Source: Sedimentisphaerales bacterium | GTDB taxonomy: Bacteria > Planctomycetota > Phycisphaerae > Sedimentisphaerales > Anaerobacaceae | NCBI GenBank assembly: GCA_016931715.1 | Contig: JAFGEF010000107.1 | Location: forward strand, 21,932-85,931 | Direction: 5' to 3' | Length of the DNA stretch: 64,000 nucleotides | In this document: positions 16,778 to 58,989 of the stretch, piece after piece | Position numbering within the stretch: position 1 is the first letter of the stretch | Layout: each line of letters begins with the position of its first letter | Translations under genes and position numbers: made by a program | The notes under the pieces: generated by a model | Seen by the model: only the letters and a program-made list of their open reading frames with translations | Told to the model about the DNA's origin: nothing | Databases searched by the model: none

Positions 16778-16905
16778 AATTTTCCAAGAACCTCTAACAA
16801 AAAGAATCGTGTCGCGGGCATCTTGCCCGCGAAACATTACCATGATGGTAATGCTGTATCTTAAAAATTCATTTTGTTACAGGCTCCAAAATATTGTTTT
16901 CTTTT

Positions 16906-18693: not shown

Positions 18694-18697
18694 TTTT

Positions 18698-20461
18698 TTA
18701 TAAAATCCTCCAGCGTATATGGTTTGCCGAAAGCTGATATGCACCGTAAGTCACCAGCAAATATATGACAGTATATATAATAAACGAAAAATGAGATGCT
18801 GCTATTATTTTAATTATGTACAAAGGAGTATTCGGGGAAATATTAAATGAATCAAACATTTCAATAAAACCGCCCCAAACACCAAAAATAGAAGCTGCAG
18901 CAAACAGAGGGCTTACGAAATATAAAAATGGAATACAGCAAACAGGAATTATACACGTTAAAAAAGTTATTATATTCAAGATGGAGGATGTTGTACTGCG
19001 TTTGCACATGGAACTGAACATAACACCGATAGAAGATACAAGCAATGCGCTGCTTATCGCTATAAGCACTAAAGGTATAAAAACAGGAGCTTTTATAATA
19101 CCGGCCAGAATAAACACAACCAGGTGAGCCGCAAGAAGAAGCCAGTATCCCCATGCACGCAGACATGAGCCGATTATTTTACACAAGGCTATTTCTTTTT
19201 CTGCTAAGGGACTTGTAAGCAAAATGGGCCATGACCTTGCCTCTTTTTCGTTCGTTATGCTCATTGAAGCAAATGTAGAAGTACGAATCAGGGCGATAAA
19301 GAAATATACGAGCACAAAGACTATATGGGTTACAATCCTGCCCAAAACTTCATAATAGATGCACAAGCCATAGGCAGTAACTAAAAATGCCAGCGATAAC
19401 AAAATACCTAATGCACTTGTAATACGATTCGGCTTAATCATCGGATTCGCTATTTCCCTCCAAATCACCGGGTGCCATTTGATATCTCTTATTTTTCCCG
19501 ACACAGGCGAGGAACTGTAACTTTGCCGGAGTTTTTTATCCGCTATTTTTCGCTCCTTCCTCGTTAAAAACAAGCCTGCCTGTCCCGTAATCTGTCTCAA
19601 GCCTGCCTTGCGAACACAGGATACAGACCAAATAAAAACAATGACAGACAAACCAAGCATAACAGCGCAATGCAATAACCATGTTTCGCCGGGAATAGAC
19701 GCTGAAGGCAATTGCATGGCAGTTGTTATGGTACGCATAAGCATAAATGGATTAATAAAAAACAGCCCAAGTTTGGGAATAAGCAAATGAAGATTATCCT
19801 TGCAGAATTCTCTCATAATAACAAAAGCAATCAGGGGCCCGGCATAAATAAAGAAACAGACCAAAAGAGTCCTGCTGATGACAAGATGCGACTGGCGATT
19901 GTAAATGGAAAATATAAGGCTTATAGTGCCTGCAAAAATCGATGCTGTTAAAGTTATGCAAAGGCTTGAAATAACAAAATACCAGGGAATCCCGCCAAAT
20001 ACTCGTATGATAGCTAAAAGAGGCAAACTAATCGCAATAAGCAGCAGCAGTTGAAGCAGTTTGCTCAGAAGTTTTCCAAAGACAATCTGGAAACTGCTTA
20101 TCGGAGTCGTCATTAAAACGCCTAATGTCTTGCTGTATATTTCATCGCTTATCGCCGTGCTTAACATAACAACGGCAAGAAACTGAACTATGATAAACTG
20201 AAACCAGACGATTGCAGTCGTAATACTGATTCCAACCTGTGCCAACTGAGACACCTGCATGACGGACGGGTATTGACCTCTGTAGCCAAAGACTCTCGTA
20301 AATGCAGAAGCAACAAAGAAAGCCAAAAAAAACGGATATGCGAAGCGGACAAAATAATTCCTCCTCCTCCGACTGGATACTATCAGCTCTTTTGCGAATA
20401 TCGGCCCGAAAAGCCGGACAGGATTTATATATTCCAGAATATCGATTAAAGTACTGTTCAT
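18698..20461 (-). CDS. ABC-2-type double permease, paralogue P4 (most divergent N- and C-termini)
   Basis: Motifs are FGPIFAKELIVSSRRRRNY, AISDEIYSKTLGVLMTTPISSFQIVFGKLLSKLLQ and ITNEKEARSWPILLTSPLAEKEIALCKI. The start is moved to ATG 20461 (MNSTLIDIL). Confidence 0.7.
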   Translation of the reverse strand: MNSTLIDILEYINPVRLFGPIFAKELIVSSRRRRNYFVRFAYPFFLAFFVASAFTRVFGYRGQYPSVMQVSQLAQVGISITTAIVWFQFIIVQFLAVVMLSTAISDEIYSKTLGVLMTTPISSFQIVFGKLLSKLLQLLLLIAISLPLLAIIRVFGGIPWYFVISSLCITLTASIFAGTISLIFSIYNRQSHLVISRTLLVCFFIYAGPLIAFVIMREFCKDNLHLLIPKLGLFFINPFMLMRTITTAMQLPSASIPGETWLLHCAVMLGLSVIVFIWSVSCVRKAGLRQITGQAGLFLTRKERKIADKKLRQSYSSSPVSGKIRDIKWHPVIWREIANPMIKPNRITSALGILLSLAFLVTAYGLCIYYEVLGRIVTHIVFVLVYFFIALIRTSTFASMSITNEKEARSWPILLTSPLAEKEIALCKIIGSCLRAWGYWLLLAAHLVVFILAGIIKAPVFIPLVLIAISSALLVSSIGVMFSSMCKRSTTSSILNIITFLTCIIPVCCIPFLYFVSPLFAAASIFGVWGGFIEMFDSFNISPNTPLYIIKIIAASHFSFIIYTVIYLLVTYGAYQLSANHIRWRIL

Positions 20462-20469
20462 AAATAATA

Positions 20470-22254
20470 TTAAAAAATGTGCCTTCGAAACTGACATTTG
20501 GCACGCCACGCAAAAAAAGCCCCTGAAAGTAAATAAGCAAATACAATATTTGTCATTAAAATAAAAGAACTCAAATAATCACGAGTTTGATCAGGCCATG
20601 TTATATATTGACGCACAGTATATAAATCAGTTGTCATTATTGTTTGTGTTAAAATAAACGGATTTATAATCATATAACTTCTATTGAACGGCCCGAATTG
20701 AAAATATTGTGCATAAAAGCGGGGAATATTAGAATCAATAACTACCGGAAATACTAACCATATTACCGACAAGAGAATAATTATCGCAATAATAGCATTG
20801 CTCGTATTTTTAAATCGAGAGCTGAAATAAAGACTCGCACCATAAAGAAAAGCTACAATTCCAATCATCATTATTGTCAGAAGGAAAAGTGATAAAGGAC
20901 CACGGCCTGATATGTTTGTGAATGCACAAAAATAAATAAAGAGCATTATCCAAATCGGCAGGATTCTCCTTAATATACCCACAAACTTGCCGGACATTAT
21001 CTGCCAATCGGACAGCGGCGTCATCAGTAAAGAACACCATGTTTGAGCTTCCTTCTCGGAAGTAATACATCTGACAGAAAAAAATACAGTGGAAAAGACT
21101 CCAAATCCCATAAATACATATAGATATAAGGTCAGTGCTTCGTCATATCCGTATTCACTGGCAATGTATGGGAATAAATACATAGCTATAATCATTATAA
21201 GCTCGATACTGATTATAATCGCAACGAACATTTTCTCCCTGCTTGAGAATTTCATTCTCATCTCTTTCCATGCAACCGCTGGACCCCACACATGCCGTAT
21301 TTGCTCATCTGGTTTTATCTTTTTAGTCGCAAATAATTTGTCGCAGAAAATATCTATCCGTCGAATCATTCTTTTCCAAAAACTCTTTTGTCCAAAAGCG
21401 TTTGCAAGCGCAATCTTTCTCAACAGATGGGATGATCTCAATAATAAAATCAATGATATTAAAAGTAAAAGAGAACTATAAATTATCAATTCATTATTAA
21501 AAATATTCTGTCCGGGAGAACGTATATAATTTATAATCTTTTCAAATATAAAAAAAGGAGAAAAAGATGGACTCCTATAACCATACCTGTTGAAGGAAAT
21601 GCCTCTTGAAAATCTAACGAAATCCAGATTTCTTAATCCATAAAGAAAACCAAGAATAGACATAGTCAAAATAATTACAAAATAAGCTTGTCGAAATACA
21701 ACAGAAAAAAACAGGCTAAGCGAGCCGGCGAAAATCACCGCAACCAGCGTTACACAAAGACTCGTCAAAATATAGCTCCATGAAACACCGCCAAAGATTC
21801 GGACTATAGCCAAAAGCGGCAGGCTTATTGCTATAAGAAGTATTATCTGGAACAACTTACTTACAAGCTTACCCATCACAATTTGAAAGCTTGTCACAGG
21901 TGTAGTTAGAAGAACTCCCAACGTTCTGTGGTAAATTTCATTGCTGACGGAATTACAAAATAATATCACTGCTATTACTTGAGTCGCGATAAACTGAAAC
22001 TGGACTATCGTTACAGTTATCATTCTTCCCATTTCCGCCAGACGAGATCTCTGAAATGTCATATTTCTGCTGTTTTCAATGATATTCACCCATGTTATTG
22101 CGACAAAAAACAGCAATGTCAAAACATATATCGCCCGAAGCAGATAATTCCTCCTGTGCCTGCTGGATACGCGCAGCTCTTTATCCAGGAAAGGTCCGGT
22201 CAGCCATTCCATGTTTAGAAAATCTTTGATAGCATTACTTATAACTGCAATCAT
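20470..22254 (-). CDS. ABC-2-type double permease, paralogue P3
   Basis: Motifs are TGPFLDKELRVSSRHRRNY, SVSNEIYHRTLGVLLTTPVTSFQIVMGKLVSKLFQ and ITSEKEAQTWCSLLMTPLSDWQIMSGKF. Confidence 0.7.
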   Translation of the reverse strand: MIAVISNAIKDFLNMEWLTGPFLDKELRVSSRHRRNYLLRAIYVLTLLFFVAITWVNIIENSRNMTFQRSRLAEMGRMITVTIVQFQFIATQVIAVILFCNSVSNEIYHRTLGVLLTTPVTSFQIVMGKLVSKLFQIILLIAISLPLLAIVRIFGGVSWSYILTSLCVTLVAVIFAGSLSLFFSVVFRQAYFVIILTMSILGFLYGLRNLDFVRFSRGISFNRYGYRSPSFSPFFIFEKIINYIRSPGQNIFNNELIIYSSLLLLISLILLLRSSHLLRKIALANAFGQKSFWKRMIRRIDIFCDKLFATKKIKPDEQIRHVWGPAVAWKEMRMKFSSREKMFVAIIISIELIMIIAMYLFPYIASEYGYDEALTLYLYVFMGFGVFSTVFFSVRCITSEKEAQTWCSLLMTPLSDWQIMSGKFVGILRRILPIWIMLFIYFCAFTNISGRGPLSLFLLTIMMIGIVAFLYGASLYFSSRFKNTSNAIIAIIILLSVIWLVFPVVIDSNIPRFYAQYFQFGPFNRSYMIINPFILTQTIMTTDLYTVRQYITWPDQTRDYLSSFILMTNIVFAYLLSGAFFAWRAKCQFRRHIF

Positions 22255-22267
22255 TTTGAAAGTTTAT

Positions 22268-24112
22268 TTAAATAATATTTTTCCTGATTCTTCTTTTAGC
22301 CAGCCATGCAAAAAACAAGCCAAATAAGCTGTAAGCCGTCATAATATACAGAAGCAGTTTAGTTGTAGAATACACATTACCGACATTTCTAAAATAATAT
22401 GAAAGATAAGGCCAGTCATATTTCAGGCCGGTAAGGCTCGAATTTGCATTATAAGCGCCGCCGGCGGCATCCATAACAACTCCAATCTGGACGATTGGAT
22501 TGATACAATAATATATTCCGGATAATTCTCTGTATAACTCTCTGTTGCGGATGATCTCTGTCACTATCCTCAGGCTGACCGGAACAAACACCCATATCAC
22601 AAGCGCAAACGCAAAACATATTATAATCGCCCATGTAGTTCGCTTGAAACACGAGCTTGCATACAAGCCGAAACCGGTAAGAAAAATCATCAAGCCGGAA
22701 ACAACTATTAATAACTGTAAAAAAGCTATCGGATTAATATATCCGACAATGGTAAATAAAAAGATATGCCCCGCCAACAAAAGCCATACGGGAAGACACT
22801 TATAAAACACGCCCAGCGCTTTTCCCTGCACAATCTGCCAGTCATCGAGCGAAGTTGTCAGCAGGATAGGCCAGGCCATAGATTCCTTTTCAGAAGTAAT
22901 GCACGATACAGACAGAACAAGATTAAAAATTATGCCGATTATTACAAACATAACAGCATATAGAAAGTGCACGTATCCTTCAGCGAGGCAATTGCTCGTA
23001 TAGCATACATAATAAGTCAACAGCAAAGTTACAACAGTAGCCGCAAGACCGACTTTATTATTTGTTCTGTCTATGCCCTGAATTAGGGGCTTTCTTATTT
23101 CTTTCCACATGACCGGCTGCCCTGTTACTTCTCTTACCGAACCTTCGTATTCTTTCAGTGAATCTCTTTTCGTATTTGAAAAGGACAACCTTAGTCTCGA
23201 GAACAGGTCAAGCTCTCCCAAAATCTGACGAAGAGCCACCCTGCGAACAACTTTAACGGAAAAGGCAAGTACCAGGGCGGAAGCAATCAGCATTATGATG
23301 CAATTAATAGGCCAGAAAAAAAATGGTATAGTCGCCGCCGGCGACATCATGATAACAGTATTAAGCGACATTGTTCCCAAAGGATTGAGATGAAGAAACG
23401 CAATCAATAAAGGAAACATTGAAATCCGTCTGCTGTAATTTAACACATAGAGCCATTGCTCCCCGAAAACTGCCGCCAGTATTAAAGGCAGAACTATATA
23501 AACAACACCGATAGTAAATACTGCCTTGATAATAACAACGTAAGTATGAATATTTTTTATTGAAAAAGCCAGGCTGATCGAACCTGCGAATATCGATGCA
23601 CTTAGTGTTATGAAAAAGCTGGAAATAATATAGCCCCACGGCACGCCGCCGAAAACACGAACTATAGCGAGTATCGGAAGGCTTATCGCCAGCAAAATAA
23701 TAATTTGCAGCAATTTGCTGAATAATTTTCCAATTACAATCTGAAGGCTGTTTATGGGAGTAGTCATCAGCACACCTAAAGTGCGATGATATATTTCGTC
23801 ACTGATGGAATTGCTTAAAAGAATAACAGCTAATATCTGCGCCGCGAAAAACTGAAAAACGACTATGGTAAGAACGATGCTCTTTCCTATCTCCGCCAGT
23901 CTGGATTTCTGATACGCCAGTGTTCCATGCAATTGTCCATAGCTGAGCCATGTTCCGACAACAAAGGAAGTCAGAAGAATTACATATGCAAAGCGCAGGT
24001 AATAATTGCGTCTTCGCCTGCTTGAAACGCGAAGCTCCTTATCGAACAAAGGCCCGGTCAGCCAGAAAAATCTTAAAAATTTTATACAAGGATTTATGGT
24101 TAAGCTCGCCAT
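22268..24112 (-). CDS. ABC-2-type double permease, paralogue P2
   Basis: Motifs are TGPLFDKELRVSSRRRRNY, SISDEIYHRTLGVLMTTPINSLQIVIGKLFSKLLQ and ITSEKESMAWPILLTTSLDDWQIVQGKA. Confidence 0.7.
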   Translation of the reverse strand: MASLTINPCIKFLRFFWLTGPLFDKELRVSSRRRRNYYLRFAYVILLTSFVVGTWLSYGQLHGTLAYQKSRLAEIGKSIVLTIVVFQFFAAQILAVILLSNSISDEIYHRTLGVLMTTPINSLQIVIGKLFSKLLQIIILLAISLPILAIVRVFGGVPWGYIISSFFITLSASIFAGSISLAFSIKNIHTYVVIIKAVFTIGVVYIVLPLILAAVFGEQWLYVLNYSRRISMFPLLIAFLHLNPLGTMSLNTVIMMSPAATIPFFFWPINCIIMLIASALVLAFSVKVVRRVALRQILGELDLFSRLRLSFSNTKRDSLKEYEGSVREVTGQPVMWKEIRKPLIQGIDRTNNKVGLAATVVTLLLTYYVCYTSNCLAEGYVHFLYAVMFVIIGIIFNLVLSVSCITSEKESMAWPILLTTSLDDWQIVQGKALGVFYKCLPVWLLLAGHIFLFTIVGYINPIAFLQLLIVVSGLMIFLTGFGLYASSCFKRTTWAIIICFAFALVIWVFVPVSLRIVTEIIRNRELYRELSGIYYCINPIVQIGVVMDAAGGAYNANSSLTGLKYDWPYLSYYFRNVGNVYSTTKLLLYIMTAYSLFGLFFAWLAKRRIRKNII

Positions 24113-24124
24113 ATTATTAATAAC

Positions 24125-25855
24125 TTAAAAGATATTACACCTTAATTTTTGTATTGATAGCTTCAATAAATACAAACCTGCTGCTGTATAAACAGCAGTC
24201 ATTACAAATATCGAAGCAATATTATAATAAGCAACAGAAAAAGGAGTCATAAGACGAACAAAAATTAACACAAATAAATAATTCAAGATAAATTCCACTA
24301 AAAAAATACCTATTGTAGCAATGACAGCCGCCATGGAGTTTTTCATACGTACACCGAAATATGCACCGCAACCAACAATAAATAATACCCTGCTAATAAT
24401 ACTTGCTGCTGAAATCGGAATCTGATAAATAATTTGAGAGAATCTAATAATTCCTTGTGAACTATAGGAAAAATATATAAAAAAACGCAGAACAAAATAT
24501 AATGCGAGCAAACTGATATTTCTCATAAGAGCAGCTTTAACTTTACTGAGAATAATATCCTTATCTTCGAGAGGAGTCACCAGTAATATCGGTAAAGTCC
24601 TCGCCTCTTTCTCGCCAGCAATACTTCCTGCTATAGAAATAGCAAGACGGAGCATAAGTATAAGATACAGACCGGAAATCGTGAAACTAAGCATTACTAT
24701 TGATAGACGATTTCGTAAAACAAGCAATAACATAATTCCAAATATGCAAAGCAGGTAAATTGTTATCGTTACTATCTTGTCAATTTTCCCCTTTCCGAAG
24801 AAATATCCATAATTTTCTTTCCAGACAATTGGATTTCCGATAACTCGTATGATACGTTCTGAATATTCATTACCGCAATATCTTTCTTTCCATATAATAG
24901 GTATGCCGTACACTTTTCTAATATAGTCCGAATATTCGTAATAGTGTTTTCTCTCTGAATCTTCTACATCTTTTATCAGAACTTTTGACTCGATATTTTT
25001 ACGCCTGACAATCATATCTCTAAAAGCGGCAGAACGTACTTTCCAAATCGAAAAAACCAATAAAACAGCAGAAGCGCTCAACATAATCATACAGTGTATT
25101 AAAATGTTTATCGAATTGGCTGGTTTCTGTTCAGCAGCCGCAACCATAGCTAAAAATGGATTTACATTAACAAAAATTGCGAGAACTTCACTGTTGCTGA
25201 ACGAAAGCTGGGTACATAAAAAAGGTAAAAGACCAAAGATAAAAAAATACCCGACAAAAATTAGTATAATAACACGATACGGGTAACGATTGAAAATAGA
25301 AAGAAACAGGCTCAAAGAACCAGCAAAAATTACAGAGGTTAATGTAATAAATAAACCGAATACTACATAATTCCAGGGTATGCCTCCGAAGACACGCATA
25401 ATTGCCAGCAAAGGCAAACTCATCGCCAACAGTAATAACACCTGTAAAAGTTTGCTTAACAGTTTTCCCGTAACTATTTTGAAACTGCTGACTGGCGTCG
25501 TCATAAGCACATTTAATGTCCCCGTGCGGATTTCATCGCTTATCGAAGAGCTGAGCATAACAATCGCGAGAATCTGAGAGGCAATAAATTGAAACCAGAC
25601 AATAGCAATTATTGCATTCTTTCCTATTTGCGATGACCTTGATGCCTGGAATATAGCAGAACTCTTACTCCCGGCGCCAATCACTGAGAGCCACATAAAT
25701 AAAATAAAAACGGCTAATAAAATAATATAAGCTGAACGAAGCAGGTAATTTCTTTTTCTCCGGCTCGAAACGCGAAGCTCCTTATCGAAAATCGGTCCGA
25801 AAATCCGGGCCGGATTGAAGAAGTCCAAAAAAAGATTTATTGATTCCGCTTTCAT
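24125..25855 (-). CDS. ABC-2-type double permease, paralogue P1 (first after the ATPase)
   Basis: Motifs are FGPIFDKELRVSSRRKRNY, SISDEIRTGTLNVLMTTPVSSFKIVTGKLLSKLLQ and IAGEKEARTLPILLVTPLEDKDIILSKV. Confidence 0.7.
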   Translation of the reverse strand: MKAESINLFLDFFNPARIFGPIFDKELRVSSRRKRNYLLRSAYIILLAVFILFMWLSVIGAGSKSSAIFQASRSSQIGKNAIIAIVWFQFIASQILAIVMLSSSISDEIRTGTLNVLMTTPVSSFKIVTGKLLSKLLQVLLLLAMSLPLLAIMRVFGGIPWNYVVFGLFITLTSVIFAGSLSLFLSIFNRYPYRVIILIFVGYFFIFGLLPFLCTQLSFSNSEVLAIFVNVNPFLAMVAAAEQKPANSINILIHCMIMLSASAVLLVFSIWKVRSAAFRDMIVRRKNIESKVLIKDVEDSERKHYYEYSDYIRKVYGIPIIWKERYCGNEYSERIIRVIGNPIVWKENYGYFFGKGKIDKIVTITIYLLCIFGIMLLLVLRNRLSIVMLSFTISGLYLILMLRLAISIAGSIAGEKEARTLPILLVTPLEDKDIILSKVKAALMRNISLLALYFVLRFFIYFSYSSQGIIRFSQIIYQIPISAASIISRVLFIVGCGAYFGVRMKNSMAAVIATIGIFLVEFILNYLFVLIFVRLMTPFSVAYYNIASIFVMTAVYTAAGLYLLKLSIQKLRCNIF

Positions 25856-50588: not shown

Positions 50589-50912
50589 ATGAAAAGAGTA
50601 GTTGACTACGATGAACTCGCAGGCGAGTTAAATAGTTTCGAAAATAAAGTAGCCCTTCATCCAAATTGGTTATTTAGAGGTCAGACAAATAGCGATTGGA
50701 CTTTGAAACCTTCTTTTACAAGAATAGCGGAAAAAAGGAGGCTTAGCAGAAATCAAGCTCTCCAATTAGAGCGTGAAGCTGTGCATAAGTTCTCTATAAG
50801 CGGAAGCAAGCTTCTGCCGCTAAAGTATACGATCGACTTGACCCTATCGCGTTTCAAGTCTCAGAATGGTGCTGGCATTGATTTTGGGAGATTATTGGTA
50901 GTAAGACAATGA
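50589..50912 (+). CDS. FRG-domain protein, apparently a truncated N-terminal fragment (possible pseudogene)
   Basis: The stretch HPNWLFRGQTNSDWTLKPSFTR is the eponymous FRG motif. The ORF stops after 107 aa, before the region that normally follows in FRG proteins of about 250 aa. Confidence 0.5.
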   Translation: MKRVVDYDELAGELNSFENKVALHPNWLFRGQTNSDWTLKPSFTRIAEKRRLSRNQALQLEREAVHKFSISGSKLLPLKYTIDLTLSRFKSQNGAGIDFGRLLVVRQ

Positions 50913-51006: not shown

Positions 51007-51774
51007 ATGACAGTAGACGAATATCTGCAAAAATTGGTTAATAAATATCGAGTTCCAGCTGTTGCACAAGGAACGCCAGAATTTAAAGCAGCAAACTCAA
51101 TATATCCAATTATACAAAGATGGGCAGGCAACCAATTAAGAGAAGTTACTTTTTCTGGCTCTAATGCCAAAGGCACAGCTATACGTGGGAGAACAGATGT
51201 AGATTTATTTATATCCTTAAAATCGGACACAAATGAAACCTTAAAAGAAATATTTAACAGTCTATATAATTATATGGTTCAGAATGGATATTCTTCCACA
51301 AAGAAACAACATGTTTCTATTCATATAGTTCATAGTGGTATTGAAGTTGATTTAGTTCCTGCAAAACACTTCGGTGGTAATACCGAGGACCATTGGCTTT
51401 ATGTGAATAGACCAAACAGAGAAAGAATAAAAACTAACGTTAATGAACACATTAACTTGGTAAGGGATTCGAACCGGACAAATGAAATAATCCTAACAAA
51501 AATCTGGCGACTAAATCATAACTTGGATTTCCCGTCGTTTTATCTGGAGCTTGTTGTTATCGAAGCGTTGAAATATAAACGTGTAGGACTTTCAGAAAAT
51601 TTCTTATCAGTTCTGGAATATCTATCAAACAGTTTTATCTCGGCTCGTTTCATTGATCCAGCGAATACAAACAATATCATTTCTGATGATCTCGCAGACA
51701 TTGAAAAGAAAGCCATTGCCAGTCAGGCAAAGAAAAGCAAGGCAGAACGGTTATGGGAAAGTATTGTATGGTAA
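51007..51774 (+). CDS. Pol-beta superfamily nucleotidyltransferase, OAS/CD-NTase/SMODS-like
   Basis: The stretch FSGSNAKGTAIRGRTDVDLFISL gives the GS...GT...DxD signature, and the third acidic residue is in IEVDLVPA. The helical C-terminal half contains TKIWRLNHNLDFPSFYLELVVIEAL and IDPANTNNIIS, as in OAS/CD-NTase-type enzymes. Confidence 0.7.
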   Translation: MTVDEYLQKLVNKYRVPAVAQGTPEFKAANSIYPIIQRWAGNQLREVTFSGSNAKGTAIRGRTDVDLFISLKSDTNETLKEIFNSLYNYMVQNGYSSTKKQHVSIHIVHSGIEVDLVPAKHFGGNTEDHWLYVNRPNRERIKTNVNEHINLVRDSNRTNEIILTKIWRLNHNLDFPSFYLELVVIEALKYKRVGLSENFLSVLEYLSNSFISARFIDPANTNNIISDDLADIEKKAIASQAKKSKAERLWESIVW

Positions 51775-52493
51775 AACCTAAGAATCAAATCGATATCAGA
51801 GAAATATTTTTAGGTATGCAACGGCAGATGCGCACAAAGCTTACTTTGAACAGAAAAATATTGACTCACCCTGTTGTAAAAGGTGATGTAAGTGAAGCGG
51901 AATGGATTGACATGCTTTCATCGTATTTGCCAAGCCGCTATCGAGTTGATAAGGCATTTGTTATTGATTGCGACGGCATTGTGAGCGATCAAATTGACAT
52001 TGTTATTTATGACCGCCATTATTCGCCTTTTATTCTCAAACAAAACGGCTCAACGTATATCCCTGCCGAAAGTGTTTATGCAGTGATCGAGGTCAAACCA
52101 ACTTTGACTGCGAAAAATATTGACTACGCCGCACATAAAGCCTATTCTGTACGAAGACTTAAACGCACAACTGCACGAATTGTTCATGCAGCTGGAGAAA
52201 TAAAAAAGCCTAAAAAACCATTCAATATTCTGGCGGGAATTTTAACAATAGATGGTAAATGTACCGATGCCTTGAAGACAAAACTTATGAAACTGCCCAA
52301 GAAGCAGACTTTGCAATTCGGGTGTTCACTTGACTATGTTTCATTCTGGTTAAAGAAGAATAAATTTGAGAAGAGTTTGCAGACAGACGCACTGATTTTC
52401 TTTTTTATTAATTTACTATCGGAGCTTCAGCAATTAGGGACGGTGAGTGCAATTAATTTGAAAGCATATATAAAAACCTTTAAGGAAAAATAA
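51768..52493 (+). CDS. DUF6602-like PD-(D/E)xK (restriction-endonuclease fold) protein
   Basis: The stretch THPVVKGDVSEAEWIDMLSSYLPSRYRVDKAFVIDCDGIVSDQIDIVIYDRHYSPFILKQNGSTYIPAESVYAVIEVKPTL matches my memory of the DUF6602 core (E...YLP..Y...D..G..S.Q.DIVIYD...P.E.VYAVIEVK). The start is either ATG 51753 or ATG 51768. The latter overlaps the NTase stop as ATGGTAA. Confidence 0.65.
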   Translation: MVKPKNQIDIREIFLGMQRQMRTKLTLNRKILTHPVVKGDVSEAEWIDMLSSYLPSRYRVDKAFVIDCDGIVSDQIDIVIYDRHYSPFILKQNGSTYIPAESVYAVIEVKPTLTAKNIDYAAHKAYSVRRLKRTTARIVHAAGEIKKPKKPFNILAGILTIDGKCTDALKTKLMKLPKKQTLQFGCSLDYVSFWLKKNKFEKSLQTDALIFFFINLLSELQQLGTVSAINLKAYIKTFKEK

Positions 52494-52543: not shown

Positions 52544-54328
52544 ATGGAACCGGAAAAACTAAAACCATACAAATCGTTTTTATTTTGTACGATTGCAGAT
52601 ATTCCTGTCACAACAGTAAGTGATGATATTGAGGAACTGGTAAAAGGAAAAGAAGGTACTGTTCTTTCAAGAAATAATCTTGAACCAGAAGGTTTGGAAA
52701 TATCATTATTTACTTATATTGATAAAATAACACCTCCTTGGAGTAATGATGAATCTGTAAAAGATATTATTAATGAATTAGTAGTAGTAGTTAAAAAGAA
52801 TAAATATATTGCTATTTATTCTTCAAATACATCTATTCGAGATACTATCAGAAGTTTTATATCTGGCACAAAGAAGAAAAAAGAAAATAAATTTACTTAT
52901 CTAAAACTTATTCCGCGCGGTTTACTAAACGCTGCTTTTATTAAAGGACAAACTCAAACATTATGGCTGTCAGGAACACATAGACGAACCGCTTCAAAGG
53001 TGGATAATAAAATTATCAACGGTCTTGATTTGCGATACGCTTTAGATCCGTTGGGTGATCAGTCATTTTTCTTTACTGCCGCAAGATGCAAGCTCCCGAC
53101 TAATATATTTAAAAATCTTATTGGTATATCGCCCAGAAAAAGTTCTCTATGGGCGGGTTTTTCTAAACAATGGGATGATTTTATTGTTAGTACAAAATTA
53201 CTATTAAACCTTTTAGAAGATACCAAAAAGCCTAATCAGAATCCATTACCAATATTAGCTGAAAGTATTAATGGATTAAATGACTTAGAAAATATTGGTA
53301 AATGTTATGATGCTGCAATTATTCCCCCCATATTGCTTGCAGAAACAGATATAGACTCTAATGATCGAAAAGATGCTGAAATGTGGAATGAATTGCATTT
53401 TGAAATAGTTTCGACTGAAAGCTCATTGAATTTTAAGGCGGAAGTTTCGTTATTTGAAATTGATAAGTTAAATAACATCGGAACATTTTCATTTACGTTT
53501 GATGATTTGACTATGTTACCACAGGTTGAATACAAAATTGAAGGTGAAGCAGCATCATCGGAGAATCAAGAAATTTTTAACAAAGCTCTTAATATGTTAC
53601 AAACTAATAAGAATTGGCTAAAAGTATGGTATGATTCAGGACATGTCATTGCAGAAAGAGAAATCTTTTTGCACCGGTTTCGTGATATGCCTTTTATGCA
53701 TTTTGAAGGACAAGCTTTAATTAATATCTCTATTAAAAATGAAAAGCCGCCTTATCCGATCGAGGATAATATTGGAAAGCATAAGTCACTTTTTTGTTAT
53801 GTTAAGAATACACTAACGAAAGGTTGGTTGACTTGTGATGATGGATCAATGGAAATGGCTGATTTTATTCATTTTAATAAAATCACGGATAAACCAACAA
53901 TCTCTCTCATTCATGTAAAGGCTTCCAAAAAAAATGAACCAAAACGTAATATGGCGGTATCTGATTATGAAATAGTTGTTAGCCAGGCAATTAAGAATAT
54001 TCGATATTTGAGCACAGATAATTTATTGGAAGGCTTAACAGCCGGGTTGAAAAAGAAGATACAAAATGCTACATGGAAGGATGGGAAAAAGCAGAGTAAT
54101 GGACGCAAAGGGATGCTAAAAGAAATTGAAAAATGTGGAACCAACATTTCTTATAAAGTTATTGTTTTTCAACCGCGTGCTCGTATTTCAGAAATTGAAA
54201 AGACCAGAGTAAATAAGAAGGGAAAATCATATAAGATTTTGCAACAACTTGATACTTTATTATTGGGAGCCAGTCATGATTGTCAATCTGCAGGAGCAGA
54301 ATTTATAGCTTGGATAGATGGTAGTTGA
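52544..54328 (+). CDS. 594-aa hypothetical protein with a C-terminal endonuclease-fold-like motif
   Basis: AGGA lies 7 nt upstream of the ATG. About 420 aa at the N-terminus have no recognisable family. The C-terminus reads CDDGSMEMADFIHFNKITDKPTISLIHVKASKK...VSDYEIVVSQAIKNIRYL and is reminiscent of sporadically distributed TIGR04141/DUF6119-type proteins (tentative). Confidence 0.55.
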   Translation: MEPEKLKPYKSFLFCTIADIPVTTVSDDIEELVKGKEGTVLSRNNLEPEGLEISLFTYIDKITPPWSNDESVKDIINELVVVVKKNKYIAIYSSNTSIRDTIRSFISGTKKKKENKFTYLKLIPRGLLNAAFIKGQTQTLWLSGTHRRTASKVDNKIINGLDLRYALDPLGDQSFFFTAARCKLPTNIFKNLIGISPRKSSLWAGFSKQWDDFIVSTKLLLNLLEDTKKPNQNPLPILAESINGLNDLENIGKCYDAAIIPPILLAETDIDSNDRKDAEMWNELHFEIVSTESSLNFKAEVSLFEIDKLNNIGTFSFTFDDLTMLPQVEYKIEGEAASSENQEIFNKALNMLQTNKNWLKVWYDSGHVIAEREIFLHRFRDMPFMHFEGQALINISIKNEKPPYPIEDNIGKHKSLFCYVKNTLTKGWLTCDDGSMEMADFIHFNKITDKPTISLIHVKASKKNEPKRNMAVSDYEIVVSQAIKNIRYLSTDNLLEGLTAGLKKKIQNATWKDGKKQSNGRKGMLKEIEKCGTNISYKVIVFQPRARISEIEKTRVNKKGKSYKILQQLDTLLLGASHDCQSAGAEFIAWIDGS

Positions 54329-54340
54329 GTTAGGATTTGT

Positions 54341-55066
54341 ATGGGAAAGCAACGATTATTAGTAAGTATTAGAGGTAAAAAGGAAGCTTTAGCAGCAATA
54401 AAAGGTGGTGCTCAAATTGCTGATGTCGAATTTCCGGCTTCGGCCTTAGGGACACCGTATCCGTTAAATATTCGAGTAGTTAGAAATGCTATGCCCAAGC
54501 ATATCAAAGTTGCAACCAATATCGGCGAGGAACAGTCTGGTCGTTCAAGTGCATGTCAGGCAGCTTTAGGTGTGGCGTTGGCGGGGGCAGATATTGTCAA
54601 ATTAGGCCTTGCTAAAATGTCTCTTGGTGAAGCAAAAGAGTTCGGGCCGGCACTCGTTAGAACGGTCAAGAAATGGTTTCCGCGAAAGCAATGTATTCCA
54701 GCATTATTTGCTGATGAACGTCTGGCCAATTGGTATATTGACCCTATAAAACAAGGACCTGAATTAGCAGAACTTATGAAAGCAGATGGATTATTGGTGG
54801 ATACTTTTGATAAATCACTTGGAAAAGGTCTGATGGATTATTATACAATTGGTGATATCAGAAAATTTGTAAAGAAATGCCATGATAGGAATATTGAGGC
54901 ATGGTTGGCAGGAAGTATTGGTAAAGATGAACTTCCTGATTTGTGGGAAGCTGGGGTTGATGTTGTTTGTGTTCGTGGTGCTGCTTGTAAGTCGGGTACA
55001 GGACCGGGAAGATTTGGAGAAGTTGATACAAAACTTGTGAAAGAACTAATTAGTACTATTCCATGA
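54341..55066 (+). CDS. MfnB/DUF556-like class I aldolase TIM-barrel ((5-formylfuran-3-yl)methyl phosphate synthase family)
   Basis: Supporting blocks are LLVSIRGKKEALAAIKGGAQIADVEFPASALGTPYP, GADIVKLGL, LLVDTFDKSLGKGL, EAWLAGSIG and VDVVCVRGAAC. Their order and spacing match the family pattern. Confidence 0.6.
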   Translation: MGKQRLLVSIRGKKEALAAIKGGAQIADVEFPASALGTPYPLNIRVVRNAMPKHIKVATNIGEEQSGRSSACQAALGVALAGADIVKLGLAKMSLGEAKEFGPALVRTVKKWFPRKQCIPALFADERLANWYIDPIKQGPELAELMKADGLLVDTFDKSLGKGLMDYYTIGDIRKFVKKCHDRNIEAWLAGSIGKDELPDLWEAGVDVVCVRGAACKSGTGPGRFGEVDTKLVKELISTIP

Positions 55067-55890
55067 CAGCTGAAGAAAAGAACCAGAATAAAGGATATTT
55101 GAATGGTGCTCGAGTTTATCTTTCGGGTCCCATGGATTTTGTTGCTTCTCGCGAAGAAGAAAAAAAGAATGGATGGCGGATTCGTGTAAAACAATTCCTC
55201 CAGTCCTACGGAGCAATAGTTTTTGATCCATGGGAAAAGCCTAAAGTTCGTGGCCTTCATGAATATGGCAAAGAAGGTGTTGTTTCAATCAATGTACGCG
55301 AGAATTGGACATTTGAAGAAAGTAGAAAGGGTGCTGAAATACGTTCTGAATGTGCTCAAAAATTTTATGAAACCATGCATATAGATTTAAGAATGGTTGA
55401 TATAAGCGATTTTGTAATTGCATATTGCCCGACAAATATATATAGCGTTGGTACTCCTCATGAAATAATCACTGCAAGAAACCAGCAAAAGCCGGTTTTA
55501 TTTATTAGTACTCCGGTTGTATTTCCTGCTTTGGAGAATTTGAAAACTCATCTTAATAGCTCTGGAGATAAAGCTGGTTTGCAGTTATTAAACGAATTAG
55601 AAAATCAGGTTCCAATTAAACAAAATCCCAAAGGGATACCAAGTTTATGGTATATGCCTTTGATTGGAAGTAACAACTTTTTTGATAGTTTTGGTTTTTC
55701 TAAATATGCTGAAAAATATAAATGGTCTAAGTCTCCTTCAGATGATCTTGAACAGCATAATCCACCAAAGCGACCATTATTAGATTTTCTCAGGCAATTA
55801 AACATGAAGCTTCCACAAAAATGGAATATAAATAAAAATAAAATTGAAAAAGATGATGACTGGCTCTTGCTTGATATAAAGCAGGTATGA
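55063..55890 (+). CDS. nucleoside 2-deoxyribosyltransferase-like (NDT/LOG/DNPH1-superfamily) protein with a C-terminal extension of about 110 aa
   Basis: Supporting blocks are ARVYLSGPMDF, VFDPW and DLRMVDISDFVIAYCPTNIYSVGTPHEIITARNQQKPVLFIS. Together these give the YxxGP start, the acidic D, and the GTxxE(I/L)xxA...KPV pattern. The start is an ATGA overlap with the preceding gene. Confidence 0.55.
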   Translation: MTAEEKNQNKGYLNGARVYLSGPMDFVASREEEKKNGWRIRVKQFLQSYGAIVFDPWEKPKVRGLHEYGKEGVVSINVRENWTFEESRKGAEIRSECAQKFYETMHIDLRMVDISDFVIAYCPTNIYSVGTPHEIITARNQQKPVLFISTPVVFPALENLKTHLNSSGDKAGLQLLNELENQVPIKQNPKGIPSLWYMPLIGSNNFFDSFGFSKYAEKYKWSKSPSDDLEQHNPPKRPLLDFLRQLNMKLPQKWNINKNKIEKDDDWLLLDIKQV

Positions 55891-55915: not shown

Positions 55916-57928
55916 CTATACAGATTTTTCCACAATTTCTTCTGATAAAGTATAATTATAATACTGAAGACCTGTTTCAGATTCCTCTATAGTATCAGCA
56001 TTACCAACCGATGCAGACAAAGGTTTATCACACTTTATTATAGCAATATCAATATGACACTTATAGTTCTGGCAAGTATTATTACGCATAGATAATAAGT
56101 CATATAGATTGGAAGAATTTTCTTTAAATGTATTATTAAAATCAAAAATAAGATATAAACCAACTGTAGGCCTACCTTCAATCTTATCTTTTAGCATGTG
56201 TTGAACTAATTCTTTATCAATCCCTTGTTTCCAGTTACCGGAATCTTTCTTAAGCTCTATCCATAACTTATTTGGTTGTCGCTCAATGAGATAGTCACAT
56301 TGACCAAGTCCGCTATCTCCCTTTGGAGTTAATATTGCTCCTCGTTTACGAACATAGTGATCAAGTTGAAGTCTCATAAGAGCATCAATATTTTTTTCCT
56401 TGACAGGAATATTTTTCTCATACCAAAGTGCATTCCAAAAACCACCGAGGCGAATATCTTTTACCAAAGTTTTAAGAAAATCATGAATTCCTTCGAGAAG
56501 ACCTTTATTTCCTTTTTCAAAAGGTGCATCAATACTCTGTTGTGTTATTATAACTGTCTGAGTAGTATTCGTTACTTCATATAGGTGACTGCTAATGAGC
56601 GGCTCTAATCCCGATCTTTCAGGTAATTGTTTTATTCTTTCCATTAAATCATCGTGCATATTAACAATCTGGAATACTATTCCAGCATCTTTACTATGTT
56701 TATCACGTTTTTCTTCGTATCTCCACCCTCGCAATGCTTGGGCTCTACAACAAAATCGGCATCCATCCTTGCTATCAACAAGGGTCAGGTTAACAAAATT
56801 TATTACCCGCTTATGTTCCTGATTACGAAGTTTTATAGTAACTAGCTCATTCTTAAATCCTGTGCAATCTTCTATATAATCATCCCATTTGATATGGACA
56901 CCATTACCTTGGATAGCAAAATCAACAACAGTTCCATATAAATCTACTGTATTTTCTTCATACACACAATTGATTATGGCATTCCATCCGTTACCATTTC
57001 TTCGAAGTGGCCGAGGATCTCTTCCGCATAAACAAGGGATTAATTCAGATAAAGGACTTTGAAGTAAACGTCTTGTATCGATCATATCTCTATGTAATGC
57101 ATTTAAAATCTTATAAGCATCTTCGAAATATGATGAAATTAAAGATGGACGATTACAACTTAATCTATCTATGCCTGTCCTTTGTATGAGATTTGGTAAT
57201 TTTGATAAAACTCTTCGAACGTCGTATGTTTCCTGTTGTAGAGCTATTTCGGGATTACGTCTTACTGCAATATCAATCAGCTTTATTGTCTCAAGGATAT
57301 AGCGTGGCACTAATTCTTTTTTTACAGAGAGGATAGACTCGAGGATTTCTGACAGAAATACACTTGCTGATTTATTAACAGTCTCCGTATTGTCCGGTGA
57401 GAGGAGTGTCCCAATCCTTGAAACATATCCCGTAACAGCTCTCCCGAAATGTTCGGTTTCATTATAGAGACCTTCAAGACGAAGAAGTCTAAGGTAGCTT
57501 GGTAGGATCTTTTCATTAACATATTGTAAATCCGATATCCAACCTTCTAATACTTTTTGTGGATTGAGAATGCGGTTGTAATTTGGATTTTTTTGGGCCA
57601 ATACTTCCTCACCTCCAAGTCCATATTTCCATGTATCAAAAAGAATGGGGAATATCTTTTCGCACAATTCCTCTGCTTCGGGTATAAATGCTAATGATTT
57701 CATTATTTGTATAGCCCTTGCGCAAAATAAAGGACAATCTGGCCATTTAGCTTTATCCGTTAGTTCTTGAGCTTTATTGATAATACGAGCCTTCACACTT
57801 GATGTGAGTTTGCCTCCATGCAGAATGTATTCAATCTCTTCTAACATATTATGTCCTATTGTATTAACACAGGTGTGATTAAACCATTCGCTATGTGTAT
57901 CAATTGGTGTATTTTGTTTTCCTAACAT
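55916..57928 (-). CDS. 670-aa hypothetical protein: helical N-domain, PilZ-like barrel signature and PD-(D/E)xK-like C-terminal domain
   Basis: GGAG lies 9 nt upstream of ATG 57928. R306-P-L-R-R310 and D336-F-A-I-Q-G341 match the PilZ motifs. D545...E558-L-K560 (CDYLIERQPNKLWIELKK) matches a nuclease core. No family is assigned with certainty. Confidence 0.55.
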   Translation of the reverse strand: MLGKQNTPIDTHSEWFNHTCVNTIGHNMLEEIEYILHGGKLTSSVKARIINKAQELTDKAKWPDCPLFCARAIQIMKSLAFIPEAEELCEKIFPILFDTWKYGLGGEEVLAQKNPNYNRILNPQKVLEGWISDLQYVNEKILPSYLRLLRLEGLYNETEHFGRAVTGYVSRIGTLLSPDNTETVNKSASVFLSEILESILSVKKELVPRYILETIKLIDIAVRRNPEIALQQETYDVRRVLSKLPNLIQRTGIDRLSCNRPSLISSYFEDAYKILNALHRDMIDTRRLLQSPLSELIPCLCGRDPRPLRRNGNGWNAIINCVYEENTVDLYGTVVDFAIQGNGVHIKWDDYIEDCTGFKNELVTIKLRNQEHKRVINFVNLTLVDSKDGCRFCCRAQALRGWRYEEKRDKHSKDAGIVFQIVNMHDDLMERIKQLPERSGLEPLISSHLYEVTNTTQTVIITQQSIDAPFEKGNKGLLEGIHDFLKTLVKDIRLGGFWNALWYEKNIPVKEKNIDALMRLQLDHYVRKRGAILTPKGDSGLGQCDYLIERQPNKLWIELKKDSGNWKQGIDKELVQHMLKDKIEGRPTVGLYLIFDFNNTFKENSSNLYDLLSMRNNTCQNYKCHIDIAIIKCDKPLSASVGNADTIEESETGLQYYNYTLSEEIVEKSV

Positions 57929-58017
57929 TATAATTCTCCAGTTAAGATATTAAAGAGGAACTATAACCTGTAATATTCTTATAATCCTTATAAGATGATT
58001 TATTCATATTAAACGTA

Positions 58018-58989
58018 TCATTTGTTACTAATTGTTAGTTTTCTATTCACAATAAAGGTATTATTTGAAAGTTTTGGAGGATGATCTCGGAAACACAATT
58101 CAAGGTAAAAATCACTACTTGGTTTTCCATAAAACCAAAGCATCTCTTTAGCCAATTTTCTATCACTATGACGAACTGGAATGATACAGATACTTCCATC
58201 CATAACCTCGACAGGAGTTCCAAGAGTTTGAAATAGAACTATGTCGTATGCTTCTGGCGCTATATGAGCTTTATTTGGTTGGATATGAGTATAAAATAAT
58301 TCTTTTGCCTCTCTTGTAGCATATACAGTGTCAAAAGTTGCAATTTCATTAAGTAAACGAGTATAGCTGGACACAGATAACCATGGTTGTTGCCCAATAA
58401 GATAATCATAAGTTGCACCGTCAAATTTAAGATTAAGAACAAACATATCCTTTGCTTTCGGAGCTAATGGAGGTAGAAGAAAAGATGTAAATGAAGGTTC
58501 CTTACCTCTATGATTTTCAGGTTTTAAGTCTATCTTATGTTGTTCATTCATAAAGCAACCTTCTGGACCCGCTATTGAATATTCGATTGGTTGTTGAGCT
58601 ATAGACAGACAATTTACTCTTGGATAAAATAGAATCGATTTATCATCATTTGTATTTTGAATGATTCGGTCAGAATACAAACGATTTAGAAGATTCAAAG
58701 CTTCATTTTCAGTCTCAAAATCAAATGGTTCCAGCCATCCTTGCACATCTCCACGGTGGACTACGCGAGCACGCATCGGAATCGTATAAGGATTTTCAAG
58801 AAACAGAATTAAGGTGATATATACTTCTCTATCTTCGTTTTTAAATACCAATCCTTCAGTCACTTGTCGTGCTATCAATGAGGGACATGTTGGCCATTCA
58901 GAAGTGAGGACAATGCAGTCAGATCCACAATTGCAACTGTACTTTTTATGATTGGTGGTATTTAAGTGAGTATTATTTTTTTGATTCAT
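58018..58989 (-). CDS. 323-aa hypothetical protein (Cys-rich N-terminus), upstream partner of the 670-aa gene
   Basis: GGAG lies 10 nt upstream of ATG 58989. The N-terminus is YSCNCGSDCIVLTSEWPTCPS. The gap to the next gene on the same strand is 89 nt. No family is recognised. Confidence 0.5.
   Translation of the reverse strand: MNQKNNTHLNTTNHKKYSCNCGSDCIVLTSEWPTCPSLIARQVTEGLVFKNEDREVYITLILFLENPYTIPMRARVVHRGDVQGWLEPFDFETENEALNLLNRLYSDRIIQNTNDDKSILFYPRVNCLSIAQQPIEYSIAGPEGCFMNEQHKIDLKPENHRGKEPSFTSFLLPPLAPKAKDMFVLNLKFDGATYDYLIGQQPWLSVSSYTRLLNEIATFDTVYATREAKELFYTHIQPNKAHIAPEAYDIVLFQTLGTPVEVMDGSICIIPVRHSDRKLAKEMLWFYGKPSSDFYLELCFRDHPPKLSNNTFIVNRKLTISNK

Follow-up and report, generated by a model that had tools for sequence, protein, structure and literature searches.

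In this study, we analysed a 64,000-nucleotide stretch of a Sedimentisphaerales bacterium genome (GenBank assembly GCA_016931715.1, contig JAFGEF010000107.1, positions 21,932 to 85,931; hereafter the window) and, within it, two overlapping genes, one for a TIM barrel related to the methanofuran-pathway enzyme MfnB and one for a protein resembling nucleoside 2-deoxyribosyltransferases (NDTs). We give an even chance to the reading that the pair is a two-enzyme cassette which is conserved, moves horizontally and belongs to anti-phage defence islands, and not a methanofuran gene beside a salvage gene. The firm results of this analysis are the families of the two proteins, a Lys-to-Glu change in the active site of the barrel, a pairing that is conserved and a neighbourhood of defence genes. 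An initial annotation, made from the letters of the window alone, had described both open reading frames (ORFs), and both are present, with every peptide motif that it quoted. The features of the pair are as follows.

54341–55066, plus strand: MfnB-like TIM-barrel gene, 241 aa, member of a Glu-variant subclade of PF04476 (ORF, Pfam and PDB matches).
54422–54430, plus strand: motif D28-V29-E30, with Glu30 (GAA, 54428–54430) in place of the Schiff-base Lys27 of Methanocaldococcus jannaschii MfnB (4rc1 alignment and codons).
54599–54601, plus strand: Lys87, equivalent of MfnB Lys85, kept (4rc1 alignment, homologue alignment and codons).
54800–54802, plus strand: Asp154, equivalent of MfnB Asp151, kept (same three sources).
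55063–55066, plus strand: ATGA stop/start overlap in the junction ccATGAca, the TGA of the MfnB-like gene (55064–55066) lying over the ATG of the NDT-like gene at 55063.
55063–55890, plus strand: NDT-superfamily-like gene, 275 aa, with an N-terminal NDT-like domain (residues ~13–150) and a C-terminal extension of ~125 aa.
55462–55464, plus strand: Glu134 in S-V-G-T-P-H-E, predicted catalytic nucleophile of the NDT-like protein (invariant in the family alignment, aligned with the G-x-G-Q-E glutamate of a short NDT; codon).

The DUF556/MfnB assignment made by the initial annotation survives a hidden Markov model (HMM) search, since the barrel matches PF04476 over its full length (E 1.5e-40; 139.8 bits, cut-off 22.4; residues 6–236 on profile positions 1–227). 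The structure of M. jannaschii MfnB (MJ1099, PDB 4rc1) matches the same residues (E 2.5e-30, 38% identity). The two proteins share a homologous full-length TIM barrel, the equivalents of Asp25, Lys85 and Asp151, and glycine-rich strands near the C-terminus; the Asp25 equivalent, Asp28, is conserved in the 4rc1 and family alignments alike. In contrast to MfnB, the subclade has Glu for Lys27 and scores far under the NCBIfam MfnB equivalog cut-offs (NF002573; the window protein reaches 135.6 bits where 341 are required, and 124.5 where 304 are required), and the gene has an NDT-like enzyme and defence genes as partners and no methanofuran context. By these comparisons, the protein is a member of the PF04476 fold family, yet fails a defining feature of the enzyme MfnB.

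MfnB requires two lysines and two aspartates, and its Schiff base is formed by Lys27 (reviewed in PMC6604932). The initial annotation had proposed that the archaeal enzymes carry D-V-K where this protein has D-V-E. The 4rc1 alignment, with the seven-residue tag of the PDB chain allowed for in the numbering, confirms the difference and places it on the Schiff-base residue itself. Glu30 is invariant among the 120 closest homologues. A search of 1.84 billion cluster representatives returned 2151 members of the PF04476 family, and the active-site residues were read in the 104 full-length sequences among the best 150 of them. D-x-K...K...D was found in 90 of the 104 and Glu in eight, and all eight fall among the 30 representatives closest to the window protein (30–64% identity). 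In this alignment the Glu variant is restricted to one PF04476 subclade, which it defines. Because Glu30 replaces the Schiff-base lysine, is invariant in close homologues and is confined to the subclade, synthesis of 4-(hydroxymethyl)-2-furancarboxaldehyde phosphate, the reaction of MfnB, is unlikely for this protein; the D-x-E motif together with Lys87 and Asp154 could serve a metal-assisted or a Lys87-based chemistry. Several members of the subclade are entered in databases as '(5-formylfuran-3-yl)methyl phosphate synthase', a name that is probably wrong, given the loss of the Schiff-base lysine and the gene context.

The second protein is placed in the NDT superfamily by the fold of its predicted structure and by its core motif, the evidence from sequence being weaker. 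PF05014 matches it at E 3.4e-4 (21.2 bits, under the gathering cut-off of 28.8), and searches of the PDB by sequence and by profile returned no match. The NDT-superfamily assignment of the initial annotation nevertheless gains support from fold matches, from the alignment of the core and from the precomputed PF05014 hits carried by several close homologues. The AlphaFold model, built with 36 homologues as input, is of moderate quality (predicted local distance difference test score, pLDDT, 72.5). The top ~30 Foldseek matches in the PDB are NDTs, DNPH1 and relatives (probability 0.9–1.0, E 1e-3 to 2e-2, template modelling score ~0.5 on the target), and the best matches among viral models are NDT, TIR and SLOG proteins. 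The family alignment contains 78 invariant columns, including Asp25, Asp108, Asp113, Asp116 and Glu134, while Tyr19 is nearly invariant; the D...D...G-x-x-x-E core aligns with that of a PF05014-positive short NDT (a weak profile alignment, E 7e-4). The protein thus resembles the NDT, DNPH1/Rcl, LOG and MilB/BlsM N-glycosidases (PF05014) in its fold and in the Tyr19, Asp and G-x-x-x-Glu134 core, and differs from them in scoring below the Pfam cut-off, in lacking a PDB sequence hit and in carrying inserts and the C-terminal extension. This extension of ~125 aa is highly conserved, is rich in invariant positions and matches no recognised family. Homologues of the NDT-like protein occur in 293 stretches of GTDB species genomes, patchily across phyla; an exact-sequence look-up of the window protein found no record. 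In IMG/VR, 55 viral contigs (L170–L224) match the N-terminal region alone (residues ~13–148), over ~115–160 aa and at 28–38% identity. A phage origin of the cassette is unsupported, IMG/VR holding no MfnB-like homologue and only three full-length NDT-like genes.

The translational coupling proposed by the initial annotation is confirmed by the ATGA at 55063–55066. Homologous loci (numbered L; maps anchored on HMM hits) were called well-flanked when at least 3 kb of flank was available, and partners were sought within 6 kb. The ATGA overlap is conserved in L004, L007, L089 and L093, i.e., where the two genes are adjacent and co-oriented, and a 4-nt overlap of called genes is also present in L091 and L228. 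The initial annotation had made its idea depend on the pair recurring in other genomes, and the pairing is conserved there in three independent forms. First, an NDT-like gene lies within 6 kb in 8 out of 10 well-flanked metagenome loci anchored on close MfnB-like genes (at least 77% identity). Second, an MfnB-like clade at 57–63% identity has a different, short NDT (159–172 aa; PF05014 E 1.7e-8) directly upstream in five loci. Third, in 13 loci anchored on NDT-like genes, the gene that follows the NDT-like one encodes a ~600-aa protein; an MfnB-like barrel, in which the equivalents of Lys87 and Asp154 are present, makes up its C-terminal half (hhalign probability 94.9%, E 4.7e-8). Among 109 genes within two positions of remoter MfnB-like genes, the commonest Pfam family is Nuc_deoxyrib_tr. 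One MfnB-like homologue of 46% identity is followed by a SIR2-like protein instead of an NDT; SIR2-like proteins are another type of enzyme that cleaves N-glycosidic bonds. No fusion of an MfnB-like domain with an NDT domain was found among the 510 proteins collected.

The commonest partner is the Septu system, whose PtuA and PtuB genes are present in 9 of the 10 close MfnB-like loci (PADLOC E down to 1e-172). The dominant order is PtuA, PtuB, an S-adenosylmethionine decarboxylase-like (AdoMetDC-like) gene, DUF3326 and the NDT-like gene, with the MfnB-like gene divergent from PtuA. This six-gene cluster, with genes overlapping or abutting, is found in at least 10 loci (L008, L010, L099, L100, L104, L106, L111, L117, L119 and others; e.g., L008 5393–10795 and L104 4099–9501, with ~10 loci besides these two). 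In these loci the cassette shares an operon with bona fide PtuA (ABC ATPase) and PtuB (HNH); in the window, a PADLOC scan of eight ORFs from 50.6 to 59 kb found neither. No PADLOC model includes the four additional enzyme genes; described Septu systems are two-gene or retron-linked. In another order, a DUF6119 gene or p594 (the gene directly upstream of the pair in the window) is followed by the MfnB-like, NDT-like and DUF8371 genes. A second type of cluster consists of PtuA/HNH, C11 (~300 aa), the NDT-like gene, the ~600-aa barrel fusion and an endonuclease/exonuclease/phosphatase-family (EEP) protein, as in L003 (6199–13771; an Acidobacteriota metagenome-assembled genome, MAG), L016 (Variovorax sp. 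KK3), L013, L017, L043 and L082. Further defence genes beside the barrel are HamA/HamB (Hachiman), GajA (Gabija), GmrSD, an ABC-3C system with a QueC-like gene, and a restriction-modification/AIPR island. Profile comparisons found no homology between p594 and DUF6119, between the ~600-aa fusion and DUF3326, C11, DUF6119 or p594, or between C11 and either DUF3326 or AdoMetDC, so no relatedness of the upstream partners is claimed; PDB sequence searches with DUF3326, C11 and the AdoMetDC-like protein returned nothing.

Mean pairwise identities, computed over the same ten Septu-type loci for all proteins, differ widely between the enzymes and the Septu proteins.

MfnB-like barrel: 82%.
NDT-like protein: 72%.
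DUF3326: 75%.
AdoMetDC-like protein: 75%.
PtuA: 40%.
PtuB: 27%.

With the enzymes at 72–82% and PtuA and PtuB at 27–40%, the enzyme genes are strongly constrained, or exchanged as a cassette, while the ATPase and the nuclease diversify. This asymmetry fits small-molecule enzymes coupled to arms-race proteins that engage with phages.

The most economical mechanism would be destruction of a nucleotide followed by processing of the sugar phosphate. The NDT-like protein, with its Tyr/Asp/Glu catalytic set kept, would cleave or exchange the N-glycosidic bond of a nucleotide, which may be NAD+, a nucleoside or deoxynucleoside monophosphate or a phage-modified nucleotide. The barrel, with Glu for the Schiff-base lysine and with Lys87, Asp28 and Asp154 kept, would then act on the resulting phosphosugar (ribose-5-phosphate, deoxyribose-5-phosphate or ADP-ribose), and this step might make the loss of the nucleotide irreversible or yield a further product. 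We infer the substrates, the order of the reactions and the anti-phage role of the cassette from the results above. There is a precedent in the effector of retron Ec86: this protein contains an NDT-like domain and reportedly depletes adenine derivatives (10.1101/2023.08.16.553469). The likeness to this Retron-Eco1 effector, in which the NDT-like enzyme forms the N-lobe, is one of domain type, sequence similarity not being established, and the partners differ, since those of the retron include a reverse transcriptase and a non-coding RNA while that in the window is a TIM barrel. A Pfam scan found no reverse-transcriptase domain in any neighbouring ORF of the window; a non-coding RNA was not searched for. 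SIR2 and TIR NADase effectors would share with the NDT-like protein a related N-glycosidic cleavage chemistry and a flavodoxin-like fold; TIR proteins are among its weaker fold hits, and a SIR2-like gene takes the place of the NDT beside one MfnB-like homologue. They differ in being known as NADases with sensor/effector logic, whereas the NDT-like protein is known here by fold and motif.

It is also possible, and we offer it tentatively, that the Glu-variant barrel acts with an N-glycosidase partner, be it NDT-like, a short NDT or SIR2-like, as an unrecognised small-molecule arm of immunity that plugs into Septu, CBASS (the cyclic-oligonucleotide-based anti-phage signalling system), Hachiman and single-gene nucleases. 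Such an arm might destroy the sugar-phosphate product (ADP-ribose or (deoxy)ribose-5-phosphate), so that phages could not rebuild the depleted pool. Phages do possess NAD+-reconstitution pathways, and these would be countered in this way. Alternatively, together with the AdoMetDC-like and DUF3326 enzymes, it might make a new compound, derived from a nucleotide, by which the nucleases next to it are controlled. Our search of the literature and of defence databases found no description of the cassette, nor of the barrel or the NDT-like protein in defence; the finding falls within the known theme of nucleotide-directed defence enzymes, in which a barrel partner is unreported in the sources searched. 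If the pair is a defence module, it would bring into bacterial immunity a new enzyme family of aldolase-type TIM barrels whose active site is rewired, as well as a six-gene Septu variant and recurrent CBASS and Hachiman add-ons. It would also provide a concrete case in which metabolic enzymes that evolve slowly are tied to nucleases or ATPases that change fast. Because the proteins are small, look soluble and show high conservation, their biochemistry is directly testable.

Several observations weigh against a defence cassette. Approximately 45 of the 58 well-flanked NDT-like loci, mostly in Verrucomicrobiota, have neither an MfnB-like domain nor a recognised defence gene within 6 kb, and several of these solitary genes sit amid housekeeping-type genes. 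The MfnB-like clade at 69–75% identity has no NDT or recognised defence partner in the four well-flanked loci examined, and the neighbours of the remoter clades include NmrA/epimerase, subtilase and cupin hits, which are mostly of unmapped origin. Neither the MfnB-like nor the NDT-like protein matches any PADLOC model. Identities of 60–90% across phyla are unusual for defence proteins, and neighbourhood alone does not separate a functional partner from a mere resident of the island. In addition, the gene sets with AdoMetDC-like and DUF3326 enzymes look more biosynthetic than degradative.

This last point leads to the main rival explanation, which we hold to be unlikely, though it is the strongest of the alternatives: the pair would build a small molecule or a modified nucleotide, with the AdoMetDC-like decarboxylase and DUF3326 contributing in many genomes. 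The barrel would make an unusual moiety and the NDT-like enzyme would install it by base exchange; what results might be an antiviral nucleoside analogue, or else a ligand by which the nucleases (PtuA/PtuB, p594, DUF6119, DUF8371) are restrained or triggered. True NDTs are transferases, MfnB itself makes a heterocycle from triose phosphates (PMC6604932), and one DUF3326 protein has been implicated in the biosynthesis of a hydroxylated polyamine. The operon PtuA-PtuB-AdoMetDC-DUF3326-NDT-like with its divergent MfnB-like gene, conserved in at least 10 loci, and the conservation of all four enzyme genes while PtuA and PtuB diverge, also agree with a pathway that ends in a product. However, the window, like the loci of the DUF6119 or p594 type, has only the two enzymes, a furan offers no nitrogen for an N-glycosidic bond, and Pfam scan and fold search recognised no ligand-sensor domain among the partner proteins.

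The reading as a defence-island cassette also draws on the genes that surround the pair in the window.

51007–52493, plus strand: CBASS operon, CD-NTase (51007–51774) and NucC (51753–52493), with PADLOC matches to Cyclase (1e-85) and NucC effector (2.5e-88) and Pfam matches to SMODS and DUF6602.
52544–54328, plus strand: p594, directly upstream of the pair, ending 12 nt before the MfnB-like gene, with a weak match to the PADLOC candidate PDC-S71 (E 8e-13).
55916–58989, minus strand: p670 (55916–57928) and p323 (58018–58989), convergent to the pair and together corresponding to a single DUF8371 protein of other loci (tblastn).

By these profile matches the setting is a defence island, which the initial annotation had not recognised, and the 'neighbouring NTase' of that annotation is the cyclase of a CBASS operon, accompanied by a NucC effector. 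The CD-NTase (255 aa) and NucC (246 aa) genes overlap by 22 nt; no HORMA/TRIP13 or Cap2/Cap3 gene was found near the operon. CD-NTase, NucC, p594, the MfnB-like gene and the NDT-like gene follow one another on one strand with gaps of at most 50 nt. No terminator-like site lies on the plus strand between the co-oriented genes, such sites being overall slightly more frequent than in shuffled sequence, and promoter-like sites are at chance level in the window.

This arrangement agrees with an accessory role in CBASS, in which the pair would make, edit or destroy the nucleotide signal of the CD-NTase or prime the cyclase; type IV CBASS, with its poorly understood QueC, TGT and OGG accessory genes, provides an analogy. 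Genes for HNH-SAVED, CD-NTase or E2-like proteins abut the MfnB-like gene in L146, L152, L162 and L165 and lie nearby in L149 and L158. We nevertheless consider this role improbable, because most loci have no cyclase, the triple of p594, MfnB-like and NDT-like genes occurs in L007 without CBASS, and the commonest partner is Septu. Known CBASS ancillary genes (Cap2/Cap3; QueC/TGT/OGG in type IV) are likewise nucleotide-directed enzymes in CBASS operons, and in the window and ~6 other loci the pair adjoins a CD-NTase and its effector, but those ancillary genes belong to other protein families and most occurrences of the cassette are free of CBASS. An operon shared with CD-NTase and effector is found in the window, whereas co-occurrence with CD-NTase is not consistent across homologues. 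A service to the neighbouring NTase, as proposed by the initial annotation, is therefore not the general rule, although the adjacency to CBASS does recur in those ~6 loci; overall, that interpretation is partly supported. In L162 (4963–5613) and L165 (4730–5416), the CD-NTase is separated from the NDT or MfnB-like genes by a gene for a small protein that combines an E2-like motif, H-V-x-x-x-G-x-x-C, with CPCG near the C-terminus; by motif these proteins look like short Cap2-type CBASS accessories.

The p594 family comprises ~313 proteins of ~600 aa with no Pfam domain and with an invariant D433/E437/D440...H457-x-K459...E476 motif. It is this D...H-x-K...E motif that makes p594 a putative nuclease; its AlphaFold model (pLDDT 83) found no meaningful fold match in the PDB. 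The p594 protein of the window is 100% identical to a protein of a Sedimentisphaerales MAG, and the p594/MfnB-like/NDT-like triple recurs in L007 and L091. Remoter p594 homologues (35–40% identity) are solitary amid housekeeping genes, like single-gene defence candidates, and for this reason p594 is probably able to function without the cassette, as Septu and CBASS are. On the other side of the pair, p670 and p323 match by tblastn the 996-aa DUF8371 gene of L004/L006, as well as L087 and L120; the DUF8371 protein follows the pair in L004/L006 and L087 and adjoins it in L120. The two match the N- and C-terminal parts of the L004 protein in permuted order (p323 first), as is also the case in L120, and a D...E-x-K motif in p670 resembles that of PD-(D/E)xK nucleases.

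A third explanation, about as improbable as the CBASS role or a shade more so, is ordinary metabolism: the barrel would belong to a methanofuran/methylofuran-type or other sugar-phosphate pathway, the NDT-like gene to nucleoside salvage, and the position in the island would be a coincidence. The very high sequence conservation, the solitary NDT-like genes amid housekeeping genes in Verrucomicrobiota and the metabolic neighbours of some MfnB-like clades are in its favour, and some planctomycetes do carry tetrahydromethanopterin (H4MPT) genes. However, the Schiff-base lysine is lost and the score lies far below the MfnB equivalog cut-off. Methanofuran and H4MPT genes are absent from the Pfam-scanned ORFs of the 64-kb window, as the initial annotation had maintained, and from the homologous loci examined. 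The distribution is patchy across phyla, and the genes are repeatedly embedded among defence genes with a conserved operon structure. The island itself (~50.5–59 kb) has a GC content of 0.35, against 0.40 in the rest of the window, which is consistent with horizontal acquisition; a search for marks of an integration site found neither a tRNA gene nor direct repeats at its flanks.

The least probable of the alternatives, and a remote one, is self-marking, by which the NDT-like enzyme would swap a DNA base for a barrel-made one, whether or not AdoMetDC and DUF3326 take part, and so shield host DNA from the adjacent nucleases, in the manner of the restriction-modification-like 7-deazaguanine system Dpd. 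Nearly all partners are nucleases or nuclease-like (PtuB HNH, NucC, HNH-SAVED, the EEP protein and GmrSD, with PD-(D/E)xK-like motifs in p594 and p670) and a nucleic-acid-binding role is conceivable for the C-terminal extension of the NDT-like protein. However, action on polymeric DNA is not known for any enzyme of the NDT family, the systems Septu, CBASS and Hachiman function without modification partners, and neither Pfam scan nor Foldseek detected a DNA-binding domain.

At the edge of the island, a 107-aa ORF (50589–50912) covers no more than the N-terminal portion of an FRG domain and also matches the PADLOC candidate PDC-S15, whose models span 250–420 aa; it is probably the remnant of a truncated defence gene. 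The island is flanked by polysaccharide, ABC-transporter and BatA/MoxR genes. Elsewhere in the window, six tandem genes of ~575–620 aa occupy positions 14987–25855 of the minus strand; the one that was scanned matches the ABC-2 membrane-transporter family, and ABC ATPase genes flank the array.

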